Source: Saccostrea echinata (Eukaryota). From it: 64,000 nt of DNA. Positions within the stretch are counted from its first letter, which is position 1, and each line of letters starts with the position of its first letter. The stretch is from contig NW_026889753.1 of assembly GCF_033153115.1 (NCBI RefSeq), forward strand, positions 2,232,001-2,296,000, written 5' to 3'. Positions 4,940-55,804 of this stretch are shown here, piece by piece. The notes beneath the pieces are model-generated. The model was not told the DNA's origin. It saw only the letters and a list, made by a program, of their open reading frames with translations, and made no database searches. Made by a program: the position numbers and the translations under genes.

Positions 4940-7320
4940 TCATTTCATTGCTATTGGCAAGTTGTGCAACTCGTCAACATTCTGTTCCTCCGGAGATTCG
5001 TCTTTCCTACTGCTCTGGAGTTTGTTTTCACCCACCATTATACCAGAGTTGTCTGCCTTTAGGGGTTGTTTGTCCTCTGTAAGATTTTTGCCCTCCTCAA
5101 TGATTTCATTCTCACCAAGTTGTTTGGCCTCGGAAAGGTCCTCAGTGTTTTCCATCTTTATGAGCTTTCGGGCCCTAGCAATTTGTTTGGCTTCATCCAT
5201 AATGTTCAATATTTCTGTTAAGAAAAGGTGTACTGTAAATATGTATGTAAAAAAGATGTTATTCATATAAATTCACGACCAAATAAAATCGCATAGATAT
5301 TTTAAAAAGCTTTGATTTTATTCACAACAAGTTTAACATTCTAGAAAACCGGGTCCTAAGACATGTTATGCTAACCGTTTTTGGTCACCATATTAATTCG
5401 TTAAGGTCAGTATTATTGCCATAGCTACAATATAAATAACATTTGAAAACGTACCGGTATCTAAATTTGTAAAATTAATTCAGTTGCCCTTGGAAAAAAA
5501 ACCTCCATTCTCTCAACATTTATGAGAGGGAGTATTTTTCTTAGGAGCCATCAATATCATCATACTGATATCTTACTGATAACTAACTGATATCTTACTG
5601 ATACTAGTATCAATTCAGATACATCGAACAGTAAAATTACACAAAAATAAGTTAAACTCCCAGTTTTACGCAATTCTTTTTTTTAACCCCCTTTACCTCT
5701 CAAAGATAATTTGCCATCTTTATTTCTGTCTCCAAGATTTATGAAACTCTGTGCGGTCTCCGAGGCCTTTTTTAATGGAAATTTGACCACGGCCAGATAG
5801 AAACGAAATATCTCGTCAAAGTCCAGTAGGCCATCCCTGTTCATATCCCCGAACTCCAGCATGGCGGCTGTCAGGTACTCGTCGTCAAAGTTGCCTATAT
5901 CCTACATGGTAATATGAATGTGCAAATAGGTTGTCGAAGTATTACAAAGCGCAGGTGCTTGGGGACAGAACCCTCCCCCTCCGCGTTCCGTACCCCAAGG
6001 GTCCTTGGAATTTTTATATAAAATATTTTTCTATGACACATTCACAAAGTATTACAATTGAATAATCTAAAATATAATCTAAAACAATGCTCTCTTTTAG
6101 TATCAGAGAGTATGAATTTTTATAAAAAAAATTATTTTATGTTATATTTTTGATTTTTCAATTGTAATACTTTGTAAATGTGTCATAGAAATATATTTTG
6201 TATAAAAAAAAGTCGGAGAACCCTTGGGGTGCGGAGGGGGGAGGGGTCCCGTCCCCAAGCACCTGTGCTGAAAACATGGAAGGTGTTAACAGAGAGGATT
6301 GATGTTACTTTTTCAGATTTATAATAACCCAAATATTTGCCCCACTTTTTACCCTGCTTAAATATTCTTGACCAATATCAGCAATTGTATACACAATCCT
6401 TCTTATGGAACTTATGAAATTAATCTATTTTTGCATTTCTCTTCTTTATATCTAGCAATTAATCGAATATTTACGGATAGTAAAAAAGGGATTAAAAATC
6501 GGACATTTTTTTGTAAAACTACGCTCCAAGGGTATGAAGTCTCGCTCTTAAACAACTAAGGATTATTTTTCGGTACGAAAAATTAAATTAAAAAAATTCA
6601 GTGAAATGTATGGAGATAACGAACAGTATTCACGCTCAAAAGTCCATTAAACAATACAAATTTTGGAGCAGAGCAAACACGGACCTCTAAAACATTAGAG
6701 GTGGGATCAGGTGCCATGTCTGGCAATTCAGACGATAGCTATTTTTCCAAGCCTCAGGAAAAACTGATTATCTAAGTATAAGCCGTTAATATTTGTCAAT
6801 TTCCAAAATTCACCAATTACTATGTCCCTTATGATCGAAGAATTTTGACTGAAGTTTATTTTTGAAGTTGGTCAATCAGCACTTTTCCCCAAAGGATCAT
6901 GTAAAATCCGAATTGGTTAAATGAAAAAAAAAAGTAAAAATTGTGTTTGAATAAAGTGTAAACTGAAATTATTTCACAATTAATGCATTTTATTATTATT
7001 TCGCCATAATGCCCAAAAATGATCTATATAAAGTTGTAGTGTTCCAAGAATTATTATTGCTGAAAAAAAATTACATAATCAGTTGAAAATAACCAAGTAT
7101 CGTATATAATACTGCTTACCATACGTCTGCCAACTTTCCCTGAAAAATTTTCTGCCTTTCTTATGAATCCGGACTTGCTTATCTTTAACCCTTCTCCTGG
7201 ACTAACATCCTCAGGTTTTGCAGAGTTAGGTTTCGATACACCAGCGGGTGCCGTGAGAACACGGATAAAGCACAAATAATAAAAAGAAATAAAATATAAG
7301 CATAAACGAATGGTTTCCAT
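4940..7320 (-). CDS. Secreted two-EF-hand calcium-binding protein (~226 aa) with an acidic tail
   Basis: Exons 7320-7120, 5901-5697 and 5214-4940 are phase-consistent with GT-AG sites. Hydrophobic N-terminus METIRLCLYFISFYYLCFIRVLTAP; EF loops DMNRDGLLDFDE and DRNKDGKLSLRE; E/D/K-rich C-terminus. Confidence 0.8.
5948..6269. mobile_element. Foldback MITE in the EF-hand gene intron
   Basis: Ends AGCGCAGGTGCTTGGGGAC...GTCCCCAAGCACCTGTGCT; the arms stay complementary nearly to the centre (ACAAAGTATTACAATTG / CAATTGTAATACTTTGT). Confidence 0.75.
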
Positions 7321-24200: not shown

Positions 24201-27200
24201 ATGGTCATGTCTGTGTTGGTAGTAGCCCAGCTTCTGAGTTTGTTTATATCAAATGGGAAATGTTTACAATTGGTAAGTGGTGAAAAAGGTCAATAAGATA
24301 TAATCTTTATATTATTTTAAATGTATTTTTATGATACTTTCAAAAGTATGATTGATTTAAGTCTTATCGAAAGTCTTATGAATCGAAACTTTAAGAAAAA
24401 ATTGTGAATTAAAATTGTTAATTTAATGATGGCGTTAAAAATAATTTATATACGTAATTATTAATTTAAAAGCTAATGTTCATTTTTATGGTTTTTTTTT
24501 TTTTTTTTTTTTTTCAACCTTTCATTGAATCTTCAGTTTTTTCACTAACTGAAGTAAAGGACTGACAAACTGTAAAGAAACAACAATCATTAATCATCAT
24601 ACTGAGTATGATATGTAAAGTACAACTCAACCAGTGAACAAGAATACTGTAGTATATAATGAAATAAATGATATAATGAAATTACAAAAATGATCAAAAG
24701 ATCAACCCTGGGATTCATCATTTGATTGATTTGACCACGTGTTTCTATGTGTTGCTTTCTTTTCAAAGGACCAGCGTGTCACATGTTGTCATCTCTTGAA
24801 CAAAGAAATCAATTATTGGACAAATGTTCTGCGTTGCAGTTATTTAAAAAAATTCTATATTGAAATCAGCGCACTACTAATAATGAGATCGGTAATAAAA
24901 TTCAAAAGATTATTTTTTTCTATTATTATTAGAGAGACTTGCGATATGCGTCAAATTAATGTAATATATACGAAAGAATAATCTGTTTTTTCTTTTACAC
25001 AGAATGAAGAGGGTAAAACAGAGACGTTGTCAGTTGTAGTAGATTCCAAAACACACAGACAGACTGACATTATACAGATTATAGAACCACCGAAATCAGT
25101 TCAAGATTCACAAAGACTGAAAATATCGTACCACTGCAGCGACAATAAAGTGTTTGGGATAGAAATCATTACAAACACAGAGAGTCAGGCAAAGAAAAGA
25201 CTGTTCCACAGAGCCTGGAGATGTAAAAAGACTAAAGACATTAACAGAGTATTAACAGTAAAAGCGCATTTTCCAAAGAGATATGCGTTTAAACCAGATA
25301 TATTTCAAAAATATTACGAATTTTTGTCGGACACTAAAATCCGTGTGTGGATTTTAGATGAATGGCAATGGCAGACGGCAAAACGCCACCACGACGCGTT
25401 TATGCGAGCTTTTGTGAAAGCTAGTTATCTTGTGGAATACCCGCCACCTTTTTCCAGACCAAGAAGAAATTTTGAAGATGTTTGTGTACCATGGAACACT
25501 CAATTACTTTTTGATATGTTCTTAAAATTGATACCGAAATGCTCACACGAAGAAGGTATGCTACATTTCACAGTCTATACATTGGTCTATCTAAGATATA
25601 TTAGGCATGTAATGATAAATGTTTTTTTTGTAGATTCTGTCGAGATTATAAAGTTCCCGGCTGTGATGACTGGCCTTCCTTACGGTATTGTGAGAACCTT
25701 TCAACCTTACAAAGACCCTGAGCTAGAAAATGGGAGGCGGTTAATGCTACAGAGTCCAAGGTAAAAGTCTTATTGCTATCAATGACGATTATTTTTTCGA
25801 CTTCTATAATCTATACACGAATAACAAGGTGTCTAGTCCCAAATGGAAGCTTTGTGAATTTGTATTACCCAACTCAGTTACCGATACTTATAAATCTTTT
25901 TTCATAGTTGCATGTTTAGGCGTTCAGGAAAATAAAATAGTTTTGAGCTAGTAATGCCTTATATATGCCAAATCCATTTTCACAAACAAAAATAAATGTT
26001 TTCCCTTTTCTCTTTAGTTTTACACTGTCTGTGTGGTTGTATGTGTTGGAATACTGTCGAGACGGACTATGTGGCATCATCACTCGAATAGACAAGATGT
26101 CACGTTATCTGACGCCATTGATTTTTCTGACGAAAGATGGTAATCCATCAACATATCAGTTTTAAATCTGTCATCAAAAGTGGATGGTGTAAATGTTGTT
26201 TGGTGTTTGAATGCAAGATATCTTTACATGTTGTGGAGGGGTCTTTGGTGAAATGAACGAAAGTCTTTGCCTTGTTTAGACAAAGAATCTTAAGATTCCT
26301 CAGCAAATTTGGTGAAAAATGCATATTTTATATGTTCTTGATTTTATTTTATAAATAGATTGGAACACTTTTCAAATGGACATAGAAAGATAACAACAAT
26401 AATAATGAAACCGTTACGGTAGCTCAGTCGGTAGAACGCTCGCTCCGTGATCAGAAGGTCGTGAGTTCGAATCTCGGTCGTGACTGACCTAAGTCGATAC
26501 AAAATAGGTGGCAACTGTTCCTTCGCCAAGTGCTCGGCACTTTGAAGTGAAAGTTGCGGGTCCTTCGGACGATACCTTAAAAAACCGAGGCCCCGTTTCA
26601 CGGCAGGCGTCGGAACGATAAAGATCCCTCACTGTTCAATAGCACAGAGTGCCGAGTAAAGGTCTAAATTTAAAGCCCTTCGCCGGTACATGGTGACGTC
26701 TCAATATGAGAGAAAAATTCTTGAAGAGAACGTTAAACAACATACAATCAATCAATAATAATGAATATTATAAAGTGACAGATTTCCTAAAAAGTTTTAA
26801 CAGCTTTAAACTTACATGACTCGCTAGTTTTAAATGTAAAAGTACTCAGACTACTCAGTATTGAAACGTTGAAGATTATCTTTGATCCTGTTACATACTG
26901 TAGGGAGTTTCCACATTCAGATCACCCAACCTCATGGACAAGATATAGCAGCTATCACTAATTTCAACGTACCTCTGCACCAATGGTTTAGATTCGTCTT
27001 TACTCTTGATAACCAAATGGTAATATAAAAATGAAGAAATAAATTGAATGAGACTGCAATACATTCCTGTGTCTTTTTGTTCATTCACATTATTTAAGAA
27101 AATATCATTAAATTGCTGTTTTATTCTAAAAACAATATTATTATAGGATATAATGCATAAATTTTCAGTGGACAATAACATTTCATCATGGATCGGGTTT

Positions 27201-34753: not shown

Positions 34754-35552
34754 CTAGACCTCCATCATCTTTGAAAGACGTTGTCGGATTTTTAAGGTAA
34801 GAAATCTAGACACACTTTCCCTGACAAGTTCATCTTCAAAATTCAGCCGAAGTTGTTTCATACATTTTAAACCCATGGGGATTTTGAACATATTTCCACC
34901 AAATTCGTTCGGAAGAATGACCGGTACAATGGTACAAGGCGTTTTCGTATACAGGGACTCCATTACAACTTGATTGCTGGAAAACCCAGGCCAATCACAC
35001 TCACAAAAGTCTTTGGTCAGTAACACGAATGCCACAGAAGAAGTTTGGAATGCCTCGTTTATACTTGAGATTCTAGGGTCATCAAACAGAGCAATCTGGA
35101 AACAATTTTCATCCCGGAGGATGTCTCTTTTTAAACTTGATAAAAAATTTAGGGCTTTGTCTTTGTCATTTGGACTATAGACAATTATTGCATCGTAAAG
35201 TTTTTCGCCAAAAATTGGTTCACTTTTGCCCTAAAATACAGGAAAAATAAATTAAACCTCTATATGATATATACATAATTATGTATATGCAATCAGTTCA
35301 GAAAAAAATTCTGAGAATGAGGAATCGAAATTAAATTATTGCCATTTTTTAACTATAGAAACAAAATTCTTTTATTATGTATATGTAGAAAATGTGTCCG
35401 ACACGAAGTAAGAAAAAAAAATAGACTTAAATTATTGCATTTGATTTACATCGTGCATAAAAAAATTTAAAAAAAAAATTTAAAAGATTATTTAATAGAA
35501 ATTTAGGCAATATTAACCACTAAAAAAGCAGCAAAAATATTATACTTGCCAT
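34754..35552 (-). CDS. TIR-domain-only protein, TICAM/TRAM-like (gene A, ~159 aa)
   Basis: Open exon 35230-34754: GKSEPIFGEKLYDAIIVYSPNDKDKALNFL...VAFVLLTKDFCECDW...TIVPVILP...FKIPMGLKCMKQL. Box-1-like YDAIIVYS. The start ATG (35552-35550) is inferred via a GC-AG intron. Confidence 0.75.
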
Positions 35553-41000: not shown

Positions 41001-41438
41001 CTAGAGTTTCTAAAGTTAGAGATATCGTTTCGTTATTCGGATCTGTCTAATAAACTGCAATTCGATAGATACATTGTTTTTTTTTTCTTTTCTATTTTTG
41101 ATACTTGTTATTTCTTCTTGTGATTTTTCTGCTGTATTTGATAGGTTGAGGTATCTCATATTTATCTGCAGTTATATTGGATAACTAATTTTGTTACCCG
41201 AAAAATAATGGTAAAATTATCTTTTACATTAAAAATGAAAGTAGGAATTAATTTCTGAAAAACAAACCAGATGTGCTACTGTAGTTTCAAGAAATCAAGA
41301 AAAGGCCATAGAATGCAATAATGAAAGACTCTGTCGCCTCTAAAAATAGATATTCATAAAATGAAAATAACCATCTTATAGTATAAAGTCAATGCTCACT
41401 TGTTATCCTTGATAATGTTATAAACTGACAAAAGTAAC

Positions 41439-41879
41439 ATGAAAGCAGTAGTTGAAAATGCTATATCATCAGATATCTCCAGGATCATATTCATTTATTC
41501 CAAAGAAGACCAGGATGAGGCTAACGAATTTCTGGAACATTTTCAAGGCATCGTTCTTACATCAGAAAGAAACTTTGAAGTAACATTTACAACGCTTGAT
41601 GAAGAATTATTAGACAAATCATTTGAACAGTATAAATTTGCTTTTCTATTCCTTACAAAGTCATTCTGTGAAGATTTATGGCCAAAAATGTCATCGAAAG
41701 ATTTTGTCAGAAATTTGTTGTACGGAATGGATTGTAATTGTATTCTGACACCAATATTTACAAAGACAAGGAAAACAGCCCATTTTAAGATTCCTTTGGG
41801 ATTGAACACCTTGAAAGGACTCAGATACTGTGACAGAGACGAATTTTACAAAACCTCTGTACTTAGGTTATTTAAATGA
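41439..41879 (+). CDS. TIR-domain-only protein, TICAM/TRAM-like (gene B, 146 aa)
   Basis: Single-exon ORF: IIFIYSKEDQDEA...FAFLFLTKSFCEDLWP...ILTPIF...FKIPLGLNTLKGL. Clearly paralogous to gene A (LTKxFCExxWP, FKIPxGL). AATAAA at ~41930. Confidence 0.8.
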   Translation: MKAVVENAISSDISRIIFIYSKEDQDEANEFLEHFQGIVLTSERNFEVTFTTLDEELLDKSFEQYKFAFLFLTKSFCEDLWPKMSSKDFVRNLLYGMDCNCILTPIFTKTRKTAHFKIPLGLNTLKGLRYCDRDEFYKTSVLRLFK

Positions 41880-46805: not shown

Positions 46806-46956
46806 GTCGAATAAGTTGATACCTTTGAAATGCTATGTGCATTAACAAAACAACTGTTCCGTCAGTCTGCTTACAGCATTGCGCAACCACATGCATCGCA
46901 AGTCTGCGTAAGGTAGTAAGTCTATAAAAACAATCGTAAGTCTTTCTCAATAAGTG

Positions 46957-46964
46957 TATAAAAA
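46957..46964 (+). promoter_or_regulatory. Candidate TATA box of the vWA gene
   Basis: TATAAAAA about 60 nt upstream of the ATG at 47018. Confidence 0.45.
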
Positions 46965-47017
46965 GGACGCCATGAAAAGAAGCATTTATTCTTAGACGAA
47001 GTTACAAGCAAGATAAA

Positions 47018-48699
47018 ATGGCAGTACCACCAGGTGGTCCGATAGAAATTTGTTTCTCGTTTGACACAACTGGCTCTATGTCAAGTTCCATCAATGCGGT
47101 TAAACAGAATGTCCAGGAAATGATTCAACGGCTGCAAACGGACATCCCCGGTATAAGAATCGCCGTATTTGCTCACGGAGATTACTGTGATAGGAAAACA
47201 TCTTATGTCACCAAGTATATAGATTTTTCCACGGATCTGAATGAACTGTGTAACTGGGTCAAAAGCGTTGGGTCCACTGGAGGCGGGGATTCTGATGAGT
47301 GTTATGAGCTGGTCTTGCACCAGGTACAAACTTTGTCTTGGACACCTGGCACACAGAGGGCGCTGGTGATGATAGGAGATGCCCATCCTCATGACGTGAA
47401 CTACCCAGACAACAAACTGAAATTGGACTGGAAGGAAGAAGTGGAAAAATTAGCAGTCATGGTAAGTAAATTATTTTAGTTCTTTATGCCAACCATTTAA
47501 TGCAAACTTTCAATGTTTTGGACTCCTGTTTTTGTATGACCATGTCGTCAGATTTTATGCAGAATACCACATGCTGTATTTCAGGGTGTGCGAGTGTACG
47601 GTGTACAGTGTCGATCTGGTGACAAAAGAACAAACGACTTCTACCAAACACTGGCCGACAAGACAGCTGGCAGACGAGTAGAACTGGAGCAGTTCTCCAA
47701 TCTCTTTGACTTCATTATGGCCATCTGCTACCGAGAGCAAGGCGCAGAGTTCCTGGACATCTATGAACAGGAAGTACGGGCCAGAGACGCTAGAATGGGT
47801 GTTCATGAGGATTTGAATGCTATGTTCGGAGCACTCAAAGACGATGAACCTTCCACATCTTCATCTAGCAAAGTGGAAGCATCGTCTTCAAAGTCCAGAA
47901 CACTTCCCTACAAGCCGGTCCTGAAAAAGGTGCCTTCACTGACAAAAGCTGCATCCGTAATAAAACTGAAGAAAAAGAATTCTTCCATTCATGCAGTAAA
48001 GAAAACAGTTTTTAAAAAGACTAGACCTTCTGCATTGGATAGAAAGAGAGCAAAGCATCTGGTCATTTCATGCAAAAAGGTACTAAAACTCACATTATTA
48101 TATTTATTAATCAATATATCATTAGGATTCCAAACTTTGGACAGTCATATTAAGTGTAAAGTATTTAATCTGAGGCTGATATTCAATGTATATACAACTT
48201 ATTTCAGCTCAACACTCTAAGAAAACTAAAGAGAGAAAATGTTGCCGAGACAAATTTCTCACTGAACAGGATTCATTGGTCCCCGTGGGAACTAGTTATT
48301 TCTCCCATTAAACCGGAGGATGACTCGGTGTGGACAGAAAGACATCGAGGAAGAAAGGGTTTCAGAAAATCCACCGTCTGCGGAGGAAAGACATTCCCTG
48401 CCGCTGTGTACGAGTTCTCTGTGAGGAAACCATCTGATTCTAAACGTTATGTTACCTACTGTAAACTTTCCTCGGGATTCACCAGTACAAGGTGCTGGGA
48501 ATCCAGACTCTTGTCCGATTCTGACGTTCGATCTCAAGTGAACAAAGTGGTGTCTTTGGGATATTCTATATTTGTTCGTAGATGTTTGGTGACTGACTCT
48601 AACAAAAACACCATTAAGAAATCCCTTCTCAGATATGACTATGCTTGGAGACCTGTACATGACTTAAGATCTTCTCCCAGGGATATCAATATGGGTTAA
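47018..48699 (+). CDS. vWA domain + basic linker + degenerate GIY-YIG-like (plant ET/HRT-type) domain protein (~476 aa)
   Basis: Exons 47018-47461, 47585-48079 and 48208-48699, all phase 0. MIDAS DTTGSMS, GGGDSDECYE and MIGDAHPH. C-terminal WSPWELVI...AVYEF...YVTY...ESRL...GYSIFVR...LLRYDYAW. AATAAA at ~48798. Confidence 0.8.
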
Positions 48700-49717
48700 A
48701 GTTGTCTAAAAACAATCTGTATAATATGTATTTTGTTAATTAATAATTTTTGGAAATTTTTTGTTGTTGTACCATGTATAATTTGTATTAATATGGAATA
48801 AATAAATATCAGTTTTATGCTGTGTCTGATGTATACAACGTTTCCGATGTTTGATATATAATATCATTTGAATGAGGAAGGTTATTTAATGAAGAATCCA
48901 CGCTTTCCTTTACTGGGAAACATGGCGCATTTGAGAATGATATTATGACATATGCAATCTATTCAGTTCCTAATGATAATTCAAAGCATACAAACAAGAT
49001 AAAAGTTGTGAAAGTTACTCTTATTTTTATGAAAATTTTTGTAAAGTGAGAATATTAAAATAACAAAAAGAAAGAAATAAAATATTTAAATAAAAAATTT
49101 TCAGGTTTAGATATAGCTTTTAATTTTTCTGAAAACTGAAAGGAAATTATTGTGGTCATGAAAGATTGAGAGAAGAACTGAAAGAATAATGACATTTTTA
49201 TGTAGTGATTTTTTAATTGGTTTTTCCAAGTGAAATTGCAAAGTCCTGTGATATTAAAAACACGAAAGTATAAAGGAAATGTCTAATACATGTACTTAGG
49301 AAGAAAAGAAAAGGAAAAAGAAACAACTCTAACGTTAGAACAGTCTACAATCGTTTTCTTCTCCTTAGAAAGTAAAATAGCTATATGGTTTATAACTTTA
49401 AATTTCGAATACATAGCTTCCTCCGTTAAATGCAGGGTAATCTAGTGAATCAGGAGAACTGGTTGATCTGTTGTTCGGTGTTTCTGAGTTCAAATTAATT
49501 GTTGTTGGCGTTTTGTCATTGGTGTATACTACTACATTATTATAGTTTACGATTATACTAATCAAGATTAACTATTGAATTGTGTGAACTTGAATGAGTC
49601 TAAATGTTTAGCGATGTTATGAGAGTATAAGACTCTCTAAACAATTCATTTCGCTTGCTTAAAAGCTATTTTAACTGTTTGAAAATAATTCTTTGCATCA
49701 TCTGAAATAACGTATCC

Positions 49718-50596
49718 AACAAGAGGCCCATGGACCACAACGCTCACCTGAGTCAATATGGCCCTGCCGTTCTTCATCAGCAGATTTTTTTCTCCTGTAT
49801 ATTTCTATATATTTACATTTCCAATAAATTTCCCTTATGATTCTTTACAAAATAGAATACAGTTCATTTTCTCATGAACTACCATGGATGAGCATGAATA
49901 TCTCCATTGTTACGTCATAATACCCTACTTGACGTCAAAACTATAGTGCAAACTGTTTTGCTTTAAAAATGACAGTTGAATGGCGTTATTTGTGGCAAAT
50001 CATCAGAAAAATAATGTAAATATAAGAAATGAATTTAATTTTTGAAAATTCATGAGGTACATGAACTACAACGCTTCACGCCGGCATATTTATCAAGAAG
50101 CGCTAACGCGCTTCATGAAATATGCCGGCGTGAAGCGTCGTAGTTCATGTCCTCATGAATCTTCAAAAATGAAATTCATTTCTTAAGTAAAACTTTGCTC
50201 CCCTGTTGTATCCCCATCCTACCCCCATTTGATTTGAACTTGAATCTAAAATATCTGAGGATACTTCCATATCAATACGACTAATCATGGCATTGTTTTT
50301 CTTGAGAAGAAGGTTTTTAAAGATTTTTTTTTCTCCTATATATTCCTATGTAAGTCTTTGATCCCCCATTGTGGGCCCACCCTATCTCCTTGGGTCATGA
50401 TTTGCACAAACTTGAATCTACACTGTGTAATGTTTCACGTGGTTTCACGTAAGTTTCAGCTTTTCTAGCCCAGTGGTTCTTAAGATGTTTTTTAAATGAT
50501 GCCACCAAATTTTCACTAATTTTTAATTAAATCCCCTTGAAAGAAGGAGTGGTCCTTCATTTGAACAAACTTGAATACCCTTCATCCAAGGATGCT

Positions 50597-50734: not shown

Positions 50735-51502
50735 TTTCTTCTAGTACTACTAATATGTTTGGTTCATATTATAGAAGTTTCCAAGAAATCAGGTTATTCA
50801 GTGTTTAGACAAATTAGATGGGCGATTTATGACAGAGGCACACTGTATTCCTGGCAATATGTTTTGATTTTAAATTGTTTATTTCAAATATTACATCATC
50901 AAAGATTTACAAGCCATCATATCAAAGGAGTCCGTCCGATTTCTATTACATGAATTATTATTATTATATTATTTTGAATCAGACACTGAAGAAGACTTGA
51001 ATCGAATTTTTGCCTGCTGTCCAATCCCTTTCCTTCTGGAATAATAGGATTTCACCATTAAAGGTTAAATCCATTTATCAAAGGGAAAAACTTAATTTTT
51101 ATATAAATACGGTGTTGTGGGATTGTTTATTTTGGTCCTGCGTCAATTAGTCTTCACCTCAACACATTTTGCTTACGTCATAAGTGCACAGATCCATCAT
51201 CAGTCGAAGCAGACGTTTTCAAAGGTAAGGACGGAATTTTACAGTGGTGTGAATTTTCGATTGTTTTTAGCTAATACTTTTACTTTTTGTCAAGAAATTG
51301 TTGTAATAAAATTTTAAATGCTCTTTTATGGCATATTTATCCAAATTAAATCATCGATGCTAACAAATTTCGTAGATATTTGTTGATTTTAACAGGCACT
51401 CATGTACACGTGCATTCAAAGTTCAGTGGTCATATTACATTAAAGTTTGATGACAACCCATGGTTAACGGATTTTCTCTTTGGTTATATTTCGAGATTCG
51501 AA

Positions 51503-52516
51503 ATGCCTAAGCGGAAGACGGCGAGTCAGACCCAGGCTCAGCCACGGAAACGAGCAGGGAGACGTCTGGAGACAATTTCCGAAGTTCCTCCGTCGGCGAG
51601 CATCACGGACGGAACGGTCCAGCCTATCAATTGCCCTTCTGATGTACAGGCTACTGCACCCACGATAATGCCTACCAACGTTATGCCACCCTACCAACTT
51701 CAGGATCTGGCTCAACGCATTTCCACAATTTTGTCTGAGCGAGAAGACCCAGCCCAACCTCAGGGGACAGAAGGTATTCCTTCATCCAATGCGAACATAA
51801 GAGTTTCTAGTTATGATAATGATTTGGGGCATAATGTATCCAACAACATTAAACTCAAAATTGCCAATGGCGAATATGTTAATTTAGCTTCATTAATCAA
51901 CAATAAGCTCGAAACTGACCCCCATGATGATACTAGATATTTCTCACTGCAAAATGGCAATTTGGGTTTATCATCAAAATCTAAATTAAAACCCATTACT
52001 GACATCCAAATGTGGACAGATGCTTTTCTTGTCTAAGCAGCCATTTATGTGCTGGCTCGCCCCATGGAAAACGCTGCTCTGTTTAAATATATCCACACAA
52101 TACGTCTCAGGGCAAGCCGGGTTAATGGCCTGGGTTGGCGGGACTATGACATTCAATTCAGATTGAAGAAAGACTGCAACCCTTCAATGTCATTTGCGTC
52201 AGTTGATCAGGAGCTTTGGCTCCTTTACATGTATAACAATGCCCTTCACCGACAGCCTGCTATTCAGCCATCCCAACCCTTAAAGTGTTATGATTTCAAC
52301 TACAAGGGTTATTGTTCAAGGCTAAACTGCCAATATAGGCACTGGTGCATTTTATGTTCACAACCCCATCCTTTTACAATGTGTAGAACCACTACTAGAA
52401 ATTCATTAAATTTTAGATCTGGGAACTCTCAGTCAACCTGGCGTGCTCAATCAACAGTCAAGCCAGCTACTAGCAGTTTCAGAACCCCCTCCTCAACACC
52501 AGTTAGACATCAGTAG
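51503..52516 (+). pseudogene. Ngaro gag-like ORF1 with a premature stop
   Basis: MPKRK...IANGEYVNLASL...WTDAFLV*(TAA 52034-52036)...GWRDYDIQFRL and a Cys/His finger (CYDFN..GYC....C.YRH.C..C...H). Confidence 0.75.
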
Positions 52517-54133
52517 TATTGCTTACAGTCCAATCAAGACTTCAGTTTTATCAGATTGTTTGACTAATTATCCTGACACAGAAAATGCACATGAACTATT
52601 GCAAGGGTTTCAATTTGGTTTTAAATTAAATTACCAAGGTCCTAGACAGCCATACAACTGTAAAAATCTTAAGTCTTTGAGTTCACTTACTACAGAAGCC
52701 ATACAATTAGTCAATAAAGAAATAAGTTTAGGTCGGGTTGCTGGCCCATTTTTCTGCCCTCCATTTCTCAACCTAAGACTGTCCCCCATAGGTATGGTAC
52801 CTAAAAAAGATGGTACATTTCGTCTTATTCATCATTTGTCCACCCATTTGGTGATAGTGTGAATGACTTCATTGATCCTCAGTATTGTTCAGTTAAATAC
52901 ACATCATTTGATGAAGCTTTGAGAATGTTGGAAAAGTTAGGTCCAGGAACTTTTATGGCTCGTTTAGACATTAAGAATGCTTTCCGTTTGCTACCAGTTC
53001 ATCCCTCTGATTTTGAGTTGCTAGGGTACAAAATCAACAGCAGTATTTATATCGACAAGTGTATGCCATTTGGCTGTTCTGTGAGTTGTGCTAAATTTGA
53101 AAAGTTTGCTTCCTTTCTGGAATGGTGTTTAAAACAAAAGAGTCAATCTGATAATGTAGTCCACTATTTGGATGATTTTTTACTAGCAGGTGCATCTGGG
53201 ACAAAGCAGTGTCATTATTTAGTCTCAACATTTACCAATCTATGCAATGATCTGGGGGTCCCATTAGCCCACGAAAAAACCTTAGGTCCTACAACAAAAT
53301 TGGTATTTTTAGGCTTGGAAATTGATACAGTCACAGAGACTGTTAGTATCCCCTCAGAGAAGCTGGGTCAGCTTTATGATCAGCTCAGTTATTTCCTATC
53401 TGGTAAAAAAGTTACACTTAGGGAAATCCAGTCCCTCACTGGCCTTCTAAATTTCTGCATTAGGGCAATTCCAGCGGATCGAGCATTCATCAGGCGCTTG
53501 TATGATGCCACTGTTGGGCTTAGCAAGCCTTATCACAAGAGACGCGTTACTCAGGAAATGAAGCAAGACATACAAATTTGGTTAATGTTCCTAGAAACTT
53601 TCAATGGTACAACATCATATAGACAAGTAGACTGGGCCAGTGACTTTCAATTAGAGTTGTATACAGATAGCGCTGGTTCGGATAAACTAGGGTGTGGGGC
53701 TATTTTTGGAACTCAATTGGCTTTTTTAACATGGCCAGAATCTTGGCAAGGGACTAGCATATTAAAGGACATTACCTTTTTGGAACTGGTACCCATAGCA
53801 ATGGCATTGTCTATTTGGGGAGATCAGTTGGGGGAAAAGCGAGTTATTTTACATACTGACAATATTGCACTTGTCACTATTTTAAATACTAAAACATCCA
53901 AATCACACAGAGTTATGCATCTCTTAAGGGTTTTGGTCTTGAAGGGCCTCATGCACAATATTCAATTTAAAGGGCAGCATATTAGGGGAGTGAAAAATGT
54001 TAAGGCTGATTCTCTTTCTCGTCTTCAGTGGCACAGATTCAGACAGGTCTTTCCAGAAGCCGACCAACTACCTACGACAGTCCCAGAATCATTTCTCAGA
54101 CTCATCTACAACATCGAGCCCAAGAATTGTTAA
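52443..54133 (+). pseudogene. Ngaro RT/RNase H ORF2 with a frameshift near 52840
   Basis: VPKKDGTFRLIHHLS / SVNDFI in different frames; LDIKNAFR, MPFG, YLDD; RNase H LYTDSAG, LEL, TDN, ADSLSR. Confidence 0.9.
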
Positions 54134-54993
54134 ACTTTTCCCTATCAGTAAACACGAAAAAGCTATATCAGGCAGCATTGCAGCAGTTCAGTTATTTCTG
54201 CGAAGTGTACAAGTGTAATCAATGTTGGCCACCAAATTCTAAAGACCTAATTCATTTTGTAGCTTATCTTTCATTTAAGCAGTTCTCTCCAAGCACAGTT
54301 AAAACATATATGGCTGCAATATCTTATTTTTGCAGAATCCAAGGTTTACTAGATACAACAAAATCGTTTATGTTACAGAAGGTTCTACTTGGGTGGGGTC
54401 GCGTTAGCGCTAGGAAGGACATTCGCAAACCTATCACTATCAACATACTTCAAAGCATTTTGTCTATCCTCCCCTAAGTATGTAGATCTGACTATGAGTC
54501 GGTGTTATTTAGTACACTGTTTTGCTCGGCATTTTTTGGTTACTTTAGAATTGGGGAGCTTGTTCAGGATTCTAAAGACCAACCCGGTCATGCTATCCAA
54601 GCAAGTGATGTCAGATTAACAACCAACAATACTATTGTAATGTCCTTAAGTCACTCCAAAACTGATCAAGAAGGGAATGGGGCCACAATCACATTAATTC
54701 CTTCTAGTCCAATCTGCCCAATTCAGTTTCTGCGCAAATATTTACTTTTAAGACCACATGCTAATGGGGCTTTTTTCATTCATCTGTCGGGCTGTCCAGT
54801 GACCAGTTATCAGGCAGAGTCTGTATTTAAAAAGGCTATAGAAATGCTAGGCTTAGATACTAAAACTTACAAGACCCATTCCTTCCGTATTGGTGCTGCT
54901 TCCCATGCTTGGGCTAGTGGTACAAGTCAGCAAGATATAGCGGTCAAGGGTCGTTGGAAATCTCAATGTATGTACCGTTATTTTAGAAAATGA
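54028..54993 (+). pseudogene. Ngaro tyrosine recombinase ORF3 with an in-frame stop (54475-54477)
   Basis: FFGYFRIGEL, HSKTDQ, HSFRIGAAS and GRWKS..MYRY catalytic motifs. Confidence 0.9.
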
Positions 54994-55173
54994 GCTTTTA
55001 AATGTCATATGGTGCAAAATGTGCAGTTCAGCAAGTTAAGGTAGCTTTACCTTTACTGACTAAGACTACAGTTTTTCTTTTATGTATGCTCAGGTGTAGG
55101 AGTGAAATATTGAGTACAGAAATTTTTGTATTCTTCCTTTTTTCTTGTTTTTCAACATGATTTTGTATTGTAG

Positions 55174-55804
55174 ATATTAGAATTTGGATTGTGGGTTCTT
55201 CCATTATTAAAAGGGCCTTTTGCCAGGCAAGGCAATCAGATTTTAGAGCCAACCTTGAACTAGAAAGGCATCATGCATCCATATTTTGGCAGGGTAAGGG
55301 GGGTATGAGATGGGCTGAAGTTATGCCAAAGGTTAAATTCTTATTAAAATTAGAAGACCCTCCTCAGATTTTAGTATTGCATTGTGGAGGCAACAATATT
55401 CCTGATGCTAGGGGTGACAAGTCAATCAAATTAAGATTAAATATTAACACAACCTTGGTCAGCTTGGCTAAGCTGTTGCCAGATACCATTTTAGTGTGGT
55501 CTCAAATCCTCCCCCGCCAGCATTGGCGTGGCGGTATTAACCAAAAAGCCTTGGACAAGGTTAGAAAACGCCTGAATAGTTTCATTGCTACGACATTAAT
55601 TAGGTCCGGGGGGGAGTATATTCGTTATCCCTAAATACACTTGGCAAGTCCAGAATTGTTTGCTCCCGATGGAGTGCACTTGTCCGAGCTTGGCAACCGT
55701 TTGTTTTTGTATCGCCTTCAACAAGGCTTGCAGACATTTTTAACAAATCCTTCTGAAAAATTGTCACCAAAACTAGGGGAGTTTGGGCCTTGGCTGCGCT
55801 ATGA
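55174..55804 (+). pseudogene. SGNH/GDSL hydrolase ORF4 of the Ngaro element, frameshifted near 55632
   Basis: IWIVGSSII (block I), GKGG (block II), LHCGGNN (block III), DGVHLS (block V, in the shifted frame); preceded by a splice acceptor. Confidence 0.75.

Follow-up and report, generated by a model that had tools for sequence, protein, structure and literature searches.

In plants, the GIY-YIG domain of ET2 is reported to nick DNA, and the ET genes are presented as plant-only (PMC6585611). For the GIY-YIG nucleases, the roles of individual residues are described in PMC3045582: the tyrosine of the GIY motif acts as general base, a helix glutamate anchors the metal, the arginine is required, and a side chain at the position of the YIG glycine would clash with the substrate. 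In the same account, Hpy188I supplies its glutamate in trans. The fold is also reported without enzymatic function, in the GIY-YIG-like domain of ANKLE2, and the title of a supplementary figure of that report states that the protein does not bind dsDNA (PMC13179284). A fusion of a vWA domain with a GIY-YIG domain was not found in full-text searches of the literature (subscription journals and supplements being outside their scope), and PMC1564403 makes no mention of such a family for the terms searched. This agrees with the preliminary description of the present locus, which knew of no characterised animal protein with this architecture. The family to which this locus belongs is a real and old, apparently undescribed combination of known domains, and its genes are labelled in the databases as 'uncharacterized', 'VWFA domain-containing' or R811-like.

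The window analysed is a stretch of 64,000 nucleotides of the genome of Saccostrea echinata. The gene under study, hereafter the solo copy, occupies positions 47018-48699 of the forward strand, where three exons separated by GT..AG phase-0 introns encode a product of 476 aa (Table 1). The encoded protein is identical letter for letter to RefSeq XP_061170135.1 (P0284) of Saccostrea echinata, which is annotated as uncharacterised, and both the three-exon gene and all the motifs quoted in the preliminary description were found in this translation. The NLS-like runs of the linker were recognised by eye only.

Table 1. Coordinates, within the window, of the parts of the solo copy and of its flanking signals.
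Feature	Position	Strand	Evidence or remark
Upstream block common with the tandem-array copies	46884..46967	+	74% identity to array unit, 86 columns
TATA-like site, putative promoter	46957-46963	+	Sequence, inside shared upstream block
Exon 1, aa 1-148, first part of vWA: D16-x-T18-x-S20, D91, E94, D121, H125	47018..47461	+	Pfam scan, translation
Intron 1, 123 nt, GT..AG, phase 0	47462..47584	+	Absent from X3 and X5 contigs; position common to C20 and C15 paralogues
Exon 2, 5' part, aa 149-234: remainder of vWA and helical extension	47585..47842	+	Extension also matched in bacterial/phage relatives
Exon 2, 3' part, aa 235-313: Ser/Lys-rich linker	47843..48079	+	Net charge +19; disorder predicted 239-293
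Intron 2, 128 nt, GT..AG, phase 0	48080..48207	+	Absent from X3 and X5 contigs, shorter side 255 letters
Exon 3, aa 314-460: ET/PF19239-type GIY-YIG-fold domain	48208..48648	+	Profile homology and predicted fold
Paralogue-specific tail and stop	48649..48699	+	10/16 aa differ vs array copy; domain 2/147
AATAAA, putative polyadenylation signal	48797..48802	+	Sequence

Several other features were observed in the window. A tyrosine-recombinase retrotransposon, which we take to be Ngaro, lies in several pieces at 51350-55631 (+), with open reading frames for a gag-like protein with a CCCH finger, a reverse transcriptase (PF00078), an integrase-like protein and a weak SGNH-hydrolase. Two divergently oriented exons, at 34757-35230 (-) and 41424-41876 (+), are 34% identical to each other and give weak PDB matches to TIR domains (E 0.5-0.9); they are possibly divergent TIR-domain genes. 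An open frame of 260 aa at 24982-25761 (+) has no Pfam match, and the long imperfect palindromes at 50023-50185 and 5948-6269 are likely MITE-like repeats.

The vWA domain with an intact MIDAS that the preliminary description proposed for the N-terminus is borne out by the Pfam scan, in which exon 1 matches PF25106 with an E-value of 8.9e-11 and PF25106/PF00092 score above the cut-off. The seven residues given for exon 1 in Table 1 do not vary in any of 100 aligned relatives. The MIDAS-type motif has here the form DxTxS, which is a variant of the DxSxS motif, and the model of the domain matches an integrin beta I domain with Z 18.8. The closest vWAs found outside the family are those of a coral-cluster protein (55% identity) and of bacteria (44-49%); identity to viral vWAs reaches 46%, and that to the other vWA of this genome is 29%. 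Among the Atlas features, relatives of this vWA also occur in fungal, rotifer and parabasalid clusters. A Pfam scan of the 476-aa protein found no kinase domain.

The C-terminal domain was compared in the preliminary description with the ET/HRT-type GIY-YIG domain of plants. Measured by Pfam directly, the likeness is weak: exon 3 matches PF19239 with an E-value of 0.0028 and 17.9 bits, under the cut-off of 21.4. Among relatives, 42 of 100 match this profile at E<=0.1, with a best value of 5.2e-6; P0167 clears the cut-off at 23 bits, and three of the best 120 of 1,039 database matches bear a PF19239 flag. The link is made by P0121, a protein of the clam Mercenaria (XP_053393955.1), which is the top match of the C-domain profile and itself matches PF19239 with an E-value of 1.3e-45. 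It consists of an HTH and, after it, a tandem series of PF19239 repeats, six or seven in number, of which the last alone has the full catalytic set (canonical Gly, Arg, Glu and Asn), and it may be an active animal ET-type GIY-YIG protein. The repeats of P0121 match the family profile over 140 columns with an HH probability of 99.05 and an E-value of 2e-18. Exon 3 reaches 50.7 bits with a profile made only from the six repeats of P0121, whereas none of 500 shuffles exceeds 8.6, and the last repeat retrieves exon 3 directly (E 3.8e-6). A word search with this last repeat gave no match among shorter proteins or viral contigs. In the Atlas a plant ET2-like cluster heads its structural matches (TM 0.73, PF19239 in 100% of the members), followed by bacterial clusters and by a mollusc vWA cluster (123 members, TM 0.68).

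The structure prediction and Foldseek comparison that had been proposed to check the fold also placed GIY-YIG chains at the top. The exon-3 model (pLDDT 92) was searched against 48,161 chains, and the first match was T4 EndoII, with 111 residues aligned at an rmsd of 3.4 and a Z of 7.1, a modest score below the level of 8 that the tool rates as unremarkable. T4 EndoII is the sole chain at Z>=5; besides it, five GIY-YIG chains are within the top 25, where Hpy188I, UvrC and I-TevI rank 3, 5 and 6. Foldseek places Hpy188I first in the PDB with an E-value of only 0.12, and the best viral match in the structure search has an E-value of 6.5e-5. Neither exon 3 nor the family profile matches any sequence in the PDB, and exon 3 alone gave no usable match in the Atlas. 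The assignment of the C-terminal domain to the ET-type GIY-YIG family, a transitive link made through the PF19239 profile, P0121 and the predicted structure, is firm by way of P0121 and weak by Pfam alone. It is the chain of sequence matches that carries it; the structural score taken alone is modest.

The state of the catalytic site was scored in 251 domains, namely those of 250 of 257 proteins and that of the solo copy, with seven proteins dropped for partial cover and P0121 kept apart. In the solo copy the tyrosines Y381 and Y397 are retained, the YIG glycine is replaced by K399, and the positions of the metal glutamate and of the asparagine are occupied by K450 and R461. The loss of the last two, already proposed in the preliminary description, extends to the family, where the glutamate motif is found in 1 of 251 domains and the asparagine, scored by motif, in 34; the YxG motif is present in two. 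The same description took the arginine to be retained. The candidate helix arginine is indeed present here as R413, in a stretch where the alignment to the canonical repeats is unstable, but it does not appear to be a feature of the family as a whole, being found in 42% of 119 relatives. Read with the published mechanism, cutting has likely been lost because the metal glutamate and the YIG glycine are gone, and the C-terminal domain is probably nuclease-dead.

The full-length model, with two confident domains, a disordered linker and a pTM of 0.57, is consistent with the absence of a fixed packing between the domains. On balance, we lean towards reading the solo copy as a host gene of an old lophotrochozoan family, the product of which would be an intracellular adaptor tethered to nucleic acid. 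Judging from fold ancestry and charge, the basic and disarmed GIY-YIG-fold domain would grip DNA or RNA, and the vWA, connected to it by a flexible basic linker, would use a bound metal to dock a partner protein. The site would be intracellular or nuclear, because the protein starts directly with the vWA and contains basic runs. Defence or chromatin would be the most likely setting. A hint of defence comes from the tandem amplification of the gene and from its viral and multicellular bacterial relatives, and one of chromatin from the Lys-rich linkers and homogenised arrays. A more specific picture can be offered only tentatively, in which lophotrochozoans would have swapped a disarmed ET-type GIY-YIG domain onto a vWA module common to multicellular bacteria, jumbo phages and giant viruses, and so obtained a lineage-specific chromatin adaptor or sensor of nucleic acids, with the homogenised oyster arrays providing high dosage for an unrecognised arm of innate defence or of early-embryo chromatin. 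Against the adaptor reading stand the tyrosines, which are mostly kept, the glutamate that follows the GIY tyrosine, which is invariant in the family (251/251), the members in which no vWA was detected, the modest structural scores, the glutamate that Hpy188I takes in trans and the reported lack of dsDNA binding by ANKLE2.

Alternatively, the C-terminal domain could be a scaffold for protein interactions that has lost the binding of nucleic acid, as proposed for the GIY-YIG-like domain of ANKLE2 (PMC13179284), which provides a precedent; we consider this rather unlikely. The residues R322, W337, W340, E382 and W460, which are invariant and common with the canonical repeats, may be structural and would then suit a scaffold. 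However, the net charge of the domain is more positive than that of its canonical relatives, at a median of +20 in the family versus -2 to +9 in the repeats of P0121, and basic residues have entered the former active-site columns, lysine or arginine being found at the glycine column in 182 of 251 domains.

Whether the solo copy is itself in use is a separate matter, on which the other copies in the genome bear. At the start of the same contig (G000:C4:1-41267, L015-L019) lies a head-to-tail array of at least 11 copies with a period of 3,756 bp, which extends off the contig start. Its full units are 99.8-100% identical, ten copies encode products of 480 aa and one has a premature stop at 455; no tRNA was found within the array. 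Two distant paralogues (C20 and C15) lie on other contigs; each contains the vWA and the C-terminal domain, with its first and last introns at the same positions as in the solo copy. In Magallana gigas there are several near-identical records of 478 aa. When the solo copy is compared with the array, pN/pS is 0.037/0.206 overall, with 0.015/0.16 for the vWA, 0.086/0.36 for the linker, 0.006/0.15 for the C-terminal domain, which points to constraint on it, and 0.41/0.64 for the tail of 16 aa; exon 3 contains tracts free of differences. Both types of tail are present in S. cucullata, where that of P0280 resembles the tail of the solo copy. The C-terminal domain of the solo copy differs by 2 aa from that of the array and by 14 from that of the like-tailed S. 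cucullata protein, a pattern that would fit patchy gene conversion or a faster change of the S. cucullata protein.

In contigs of the runs X3 and X5, which come from two studies and are RNA according to the guess of the tool, both introns are removed exactly at their GT..AG ends. These contigs are not identical to the solo copy, since their exon 2 shows one insertion and one deletion, each of 3 nt, of the kind that marks the array copies; the X5 contig also has an array-type tail, and the exon-1 part of the X3 contig shows one difference from the window in 404 nt. Of the contigs that are nearly identical to the solo copy, some retain part of intron 1 and the others depart from exon 1 at 47430 into a repeat. 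Splicing is demonstrated for close relatives of the solo copy, exact letters excepted, so that the joining of exon 3 to exon 2 assumed in the preliminary description holds in the contigs of these relatives and not for the exact letters of the solo copy. The deepest contigs of samples X1 and X2 exit exon 1 at 47430 and resume, with an overlap of 3 nt, in a repeat matching 49751; this junction is possibly a 2.3-kb deletion allele or an assembly chimera.

These observations could be read as those of a functional family in which the solo copy is a little-used or decaying duplicate that owes its likeness to the array to gene conversion. The array-type marks on the spliced contigs, the departure of the deepest contigs matching the solo copy from exon 1 into the repeat, the diverged tail and the difference-free tracts of exon 3 all agree with such a history, which we nonetheless hold to be unlikely: the frame and the splice sites are intact, the overall pN/pS is low, and a paralogue with a similar tail exists in S. 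cucullata.

That the domain still cuts or nicks nucleic acid, at a remodelled site in which the acid has been relocated (E411 or D457) or the glutamate is supplied by a partner, is also unlikely. The GIY tyrosine is retained in 215 and the YIG tyrosine in 134 of the 251 domains, E411 is found in 77% and D457 in 84% of 119 relatives, and Hpy188I sets a precedent for a glutamate given in trans (PMC3045582). Nonetheless, the glycine, arginine, glutamate and asparagine have eroded together, and a side chain at the position of the glycine should block the phosphate (PMC3045582).

The breadth of the family bears on its origin. The array protein found 1,039 matches in a database search, and the best 120 of them all have both domains; those named among these 120 are from bivalves, gastropods, a chiton, the brachiopod Lingula and two nemerteans. 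The annelid Owenia also carries the C-terminal domain, which brings the animal phyla of the family to at least four (Mollusca, Brachiopoda, Nemertea and Annelida). The profile of this domain matches 339 clusters at E<=0.001, the best 150 of which were listed, and every named carrier is a lophotrochozoan (names were available for 30 proteins from among the matches listed). The profile search yielded 138 new matches to the domain, 24 of them long-armed with no detected vWA and 84 short or fragments. Three intronless full-length family members (L204, L205, L206) were observed on metagenome contigs of 1.9-7.9 kb, and these group with or resemble mollusc proteins.

Outside the family, proteins with a vWA of the same subtype have a different partner, here called the B domain. 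This domain of about 125 aa (GRGFYEF...QSTS; for example L182:3640-4050, L207, P0264 and P0055) accompanies the vWA in cyanobacteria, myxobacteria, planctomycetes, large phages, giant viruses and corals, and lies C-terminal to it in 75 of 80 bacterial, 54 of 80 viral and 67 of 80 metagenome loci. It has no Pfam match and no sequence match in the PDB, and a profile comparison detected no resemblance between it and the GIY-like domain (HH probability 0.1), which is itself found at none of 160 bacterial or viral vWA loci. The genes that neighbour the bacterial vWA, DNA ligase and others, recur in at most 40 of 240 loci and form no shared operon, and their recurrence is apparently due to kinship. 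A SWIM and a RING finger stand at the N-terminus of the vWA + B protein on the giant-virus contig L070, and the protein on the giant-virus contig L074 has a similarly long N-terminus; the R811-like names of some mollusc members can probably be traced to giant-virus vWA + B proteins such as that of L070. Both arrangements meet in animals: a coral protein (P0264) has the order B-vWA-B, and the Lingula protein P0055, the sole carrier of B among 258 proteins, the order B-vWA-GIY.

In a tree of the vWA, which is unrooted, comprises 50 of about 370 rows with the longest animal branches left out, and has a bootstrap that is not fully settled, 20 lophotrochozoan rows and one unassigned long-branch metagenome row form one side (100/97), and this side together with two corals is split from 27 microbial and viral rows (99/92). 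The likely founder of the family is an ancestral animal vWA gene, comparable to those that corals have with the B domain, that gained a C-terminal ET-type GIY-YIG domain. The preliminary description raised a horizontal or viral origin, for which, if meant as recent, there is no support: the fusion is of old date and occurs widely among lophotrochozoans, with intron positions common to old paralogues, and the animal vWAs stand apart from the microbial ones in the tree. A recent acquisition, or a passage as cargo of a mobile element, would account for a vWA that is closer to those of bacteria and viruses than to the other vWA of the genome, but is highly improbable against best matches that are all two-domain and, where named, lophotrochozoan, the same vWA in corals, the tree split, the lack of the GIY-like domain at the bacterial and viral loci and the common introns of the paralogues. 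An ancient transfer into early animals may have taken place.

Compared with the known systems, the oyster domain belongs with that of plant ET1 and ET2 in the same domain family, PF19239, by transitive profile homology and predicted structure. It differs in lying C-terminal to a vWA and in the erosion of the catalytic glycine, arginine, glutamate and asparagine; no Cys/His-rich ET repeats were found in Pfam scans of the oyster protein, in which 16 aa follow the domain. Described in plants, the ET-type GIY-YIG domain is in this way extended to animals, in canonical-looking form in the clam repeat and in disarmed form in a family now defined in at least four phyla. With T4 EndoII, Hpy188I, UvrC-N and I-TevI, its best structural matches, the domain shares a core of hairpin, helix, linker strand and helix; it differs from them in an identity of 6-11%, in the missing metal glutamate and in an extra N-terminal segment with RE..V..F and W..W. 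ANKLE2, in its uncharacterised domain 1, likewise presents an animal GIY-YIG-like fold without nuclease motifs (PMC13179284), although in another architecture and apparently in another GIY-YIG lineage. Both the C-terminal domain and the vWA are small and soluble, and suited to direct assays of binding and nuclease activity. The microbial and coral vWA + B proteins have the same vWA subtype and helical extension, at 40-55% identity, and the B domain, which occurs in bacteria, phages and giant viruses as well as in corals, offers a second target for study. The microbial proteins carry it at the C-terminus, where the oyster protein has the GIY-like domain, and Lingula provides a visible intermediate of this domain swap.
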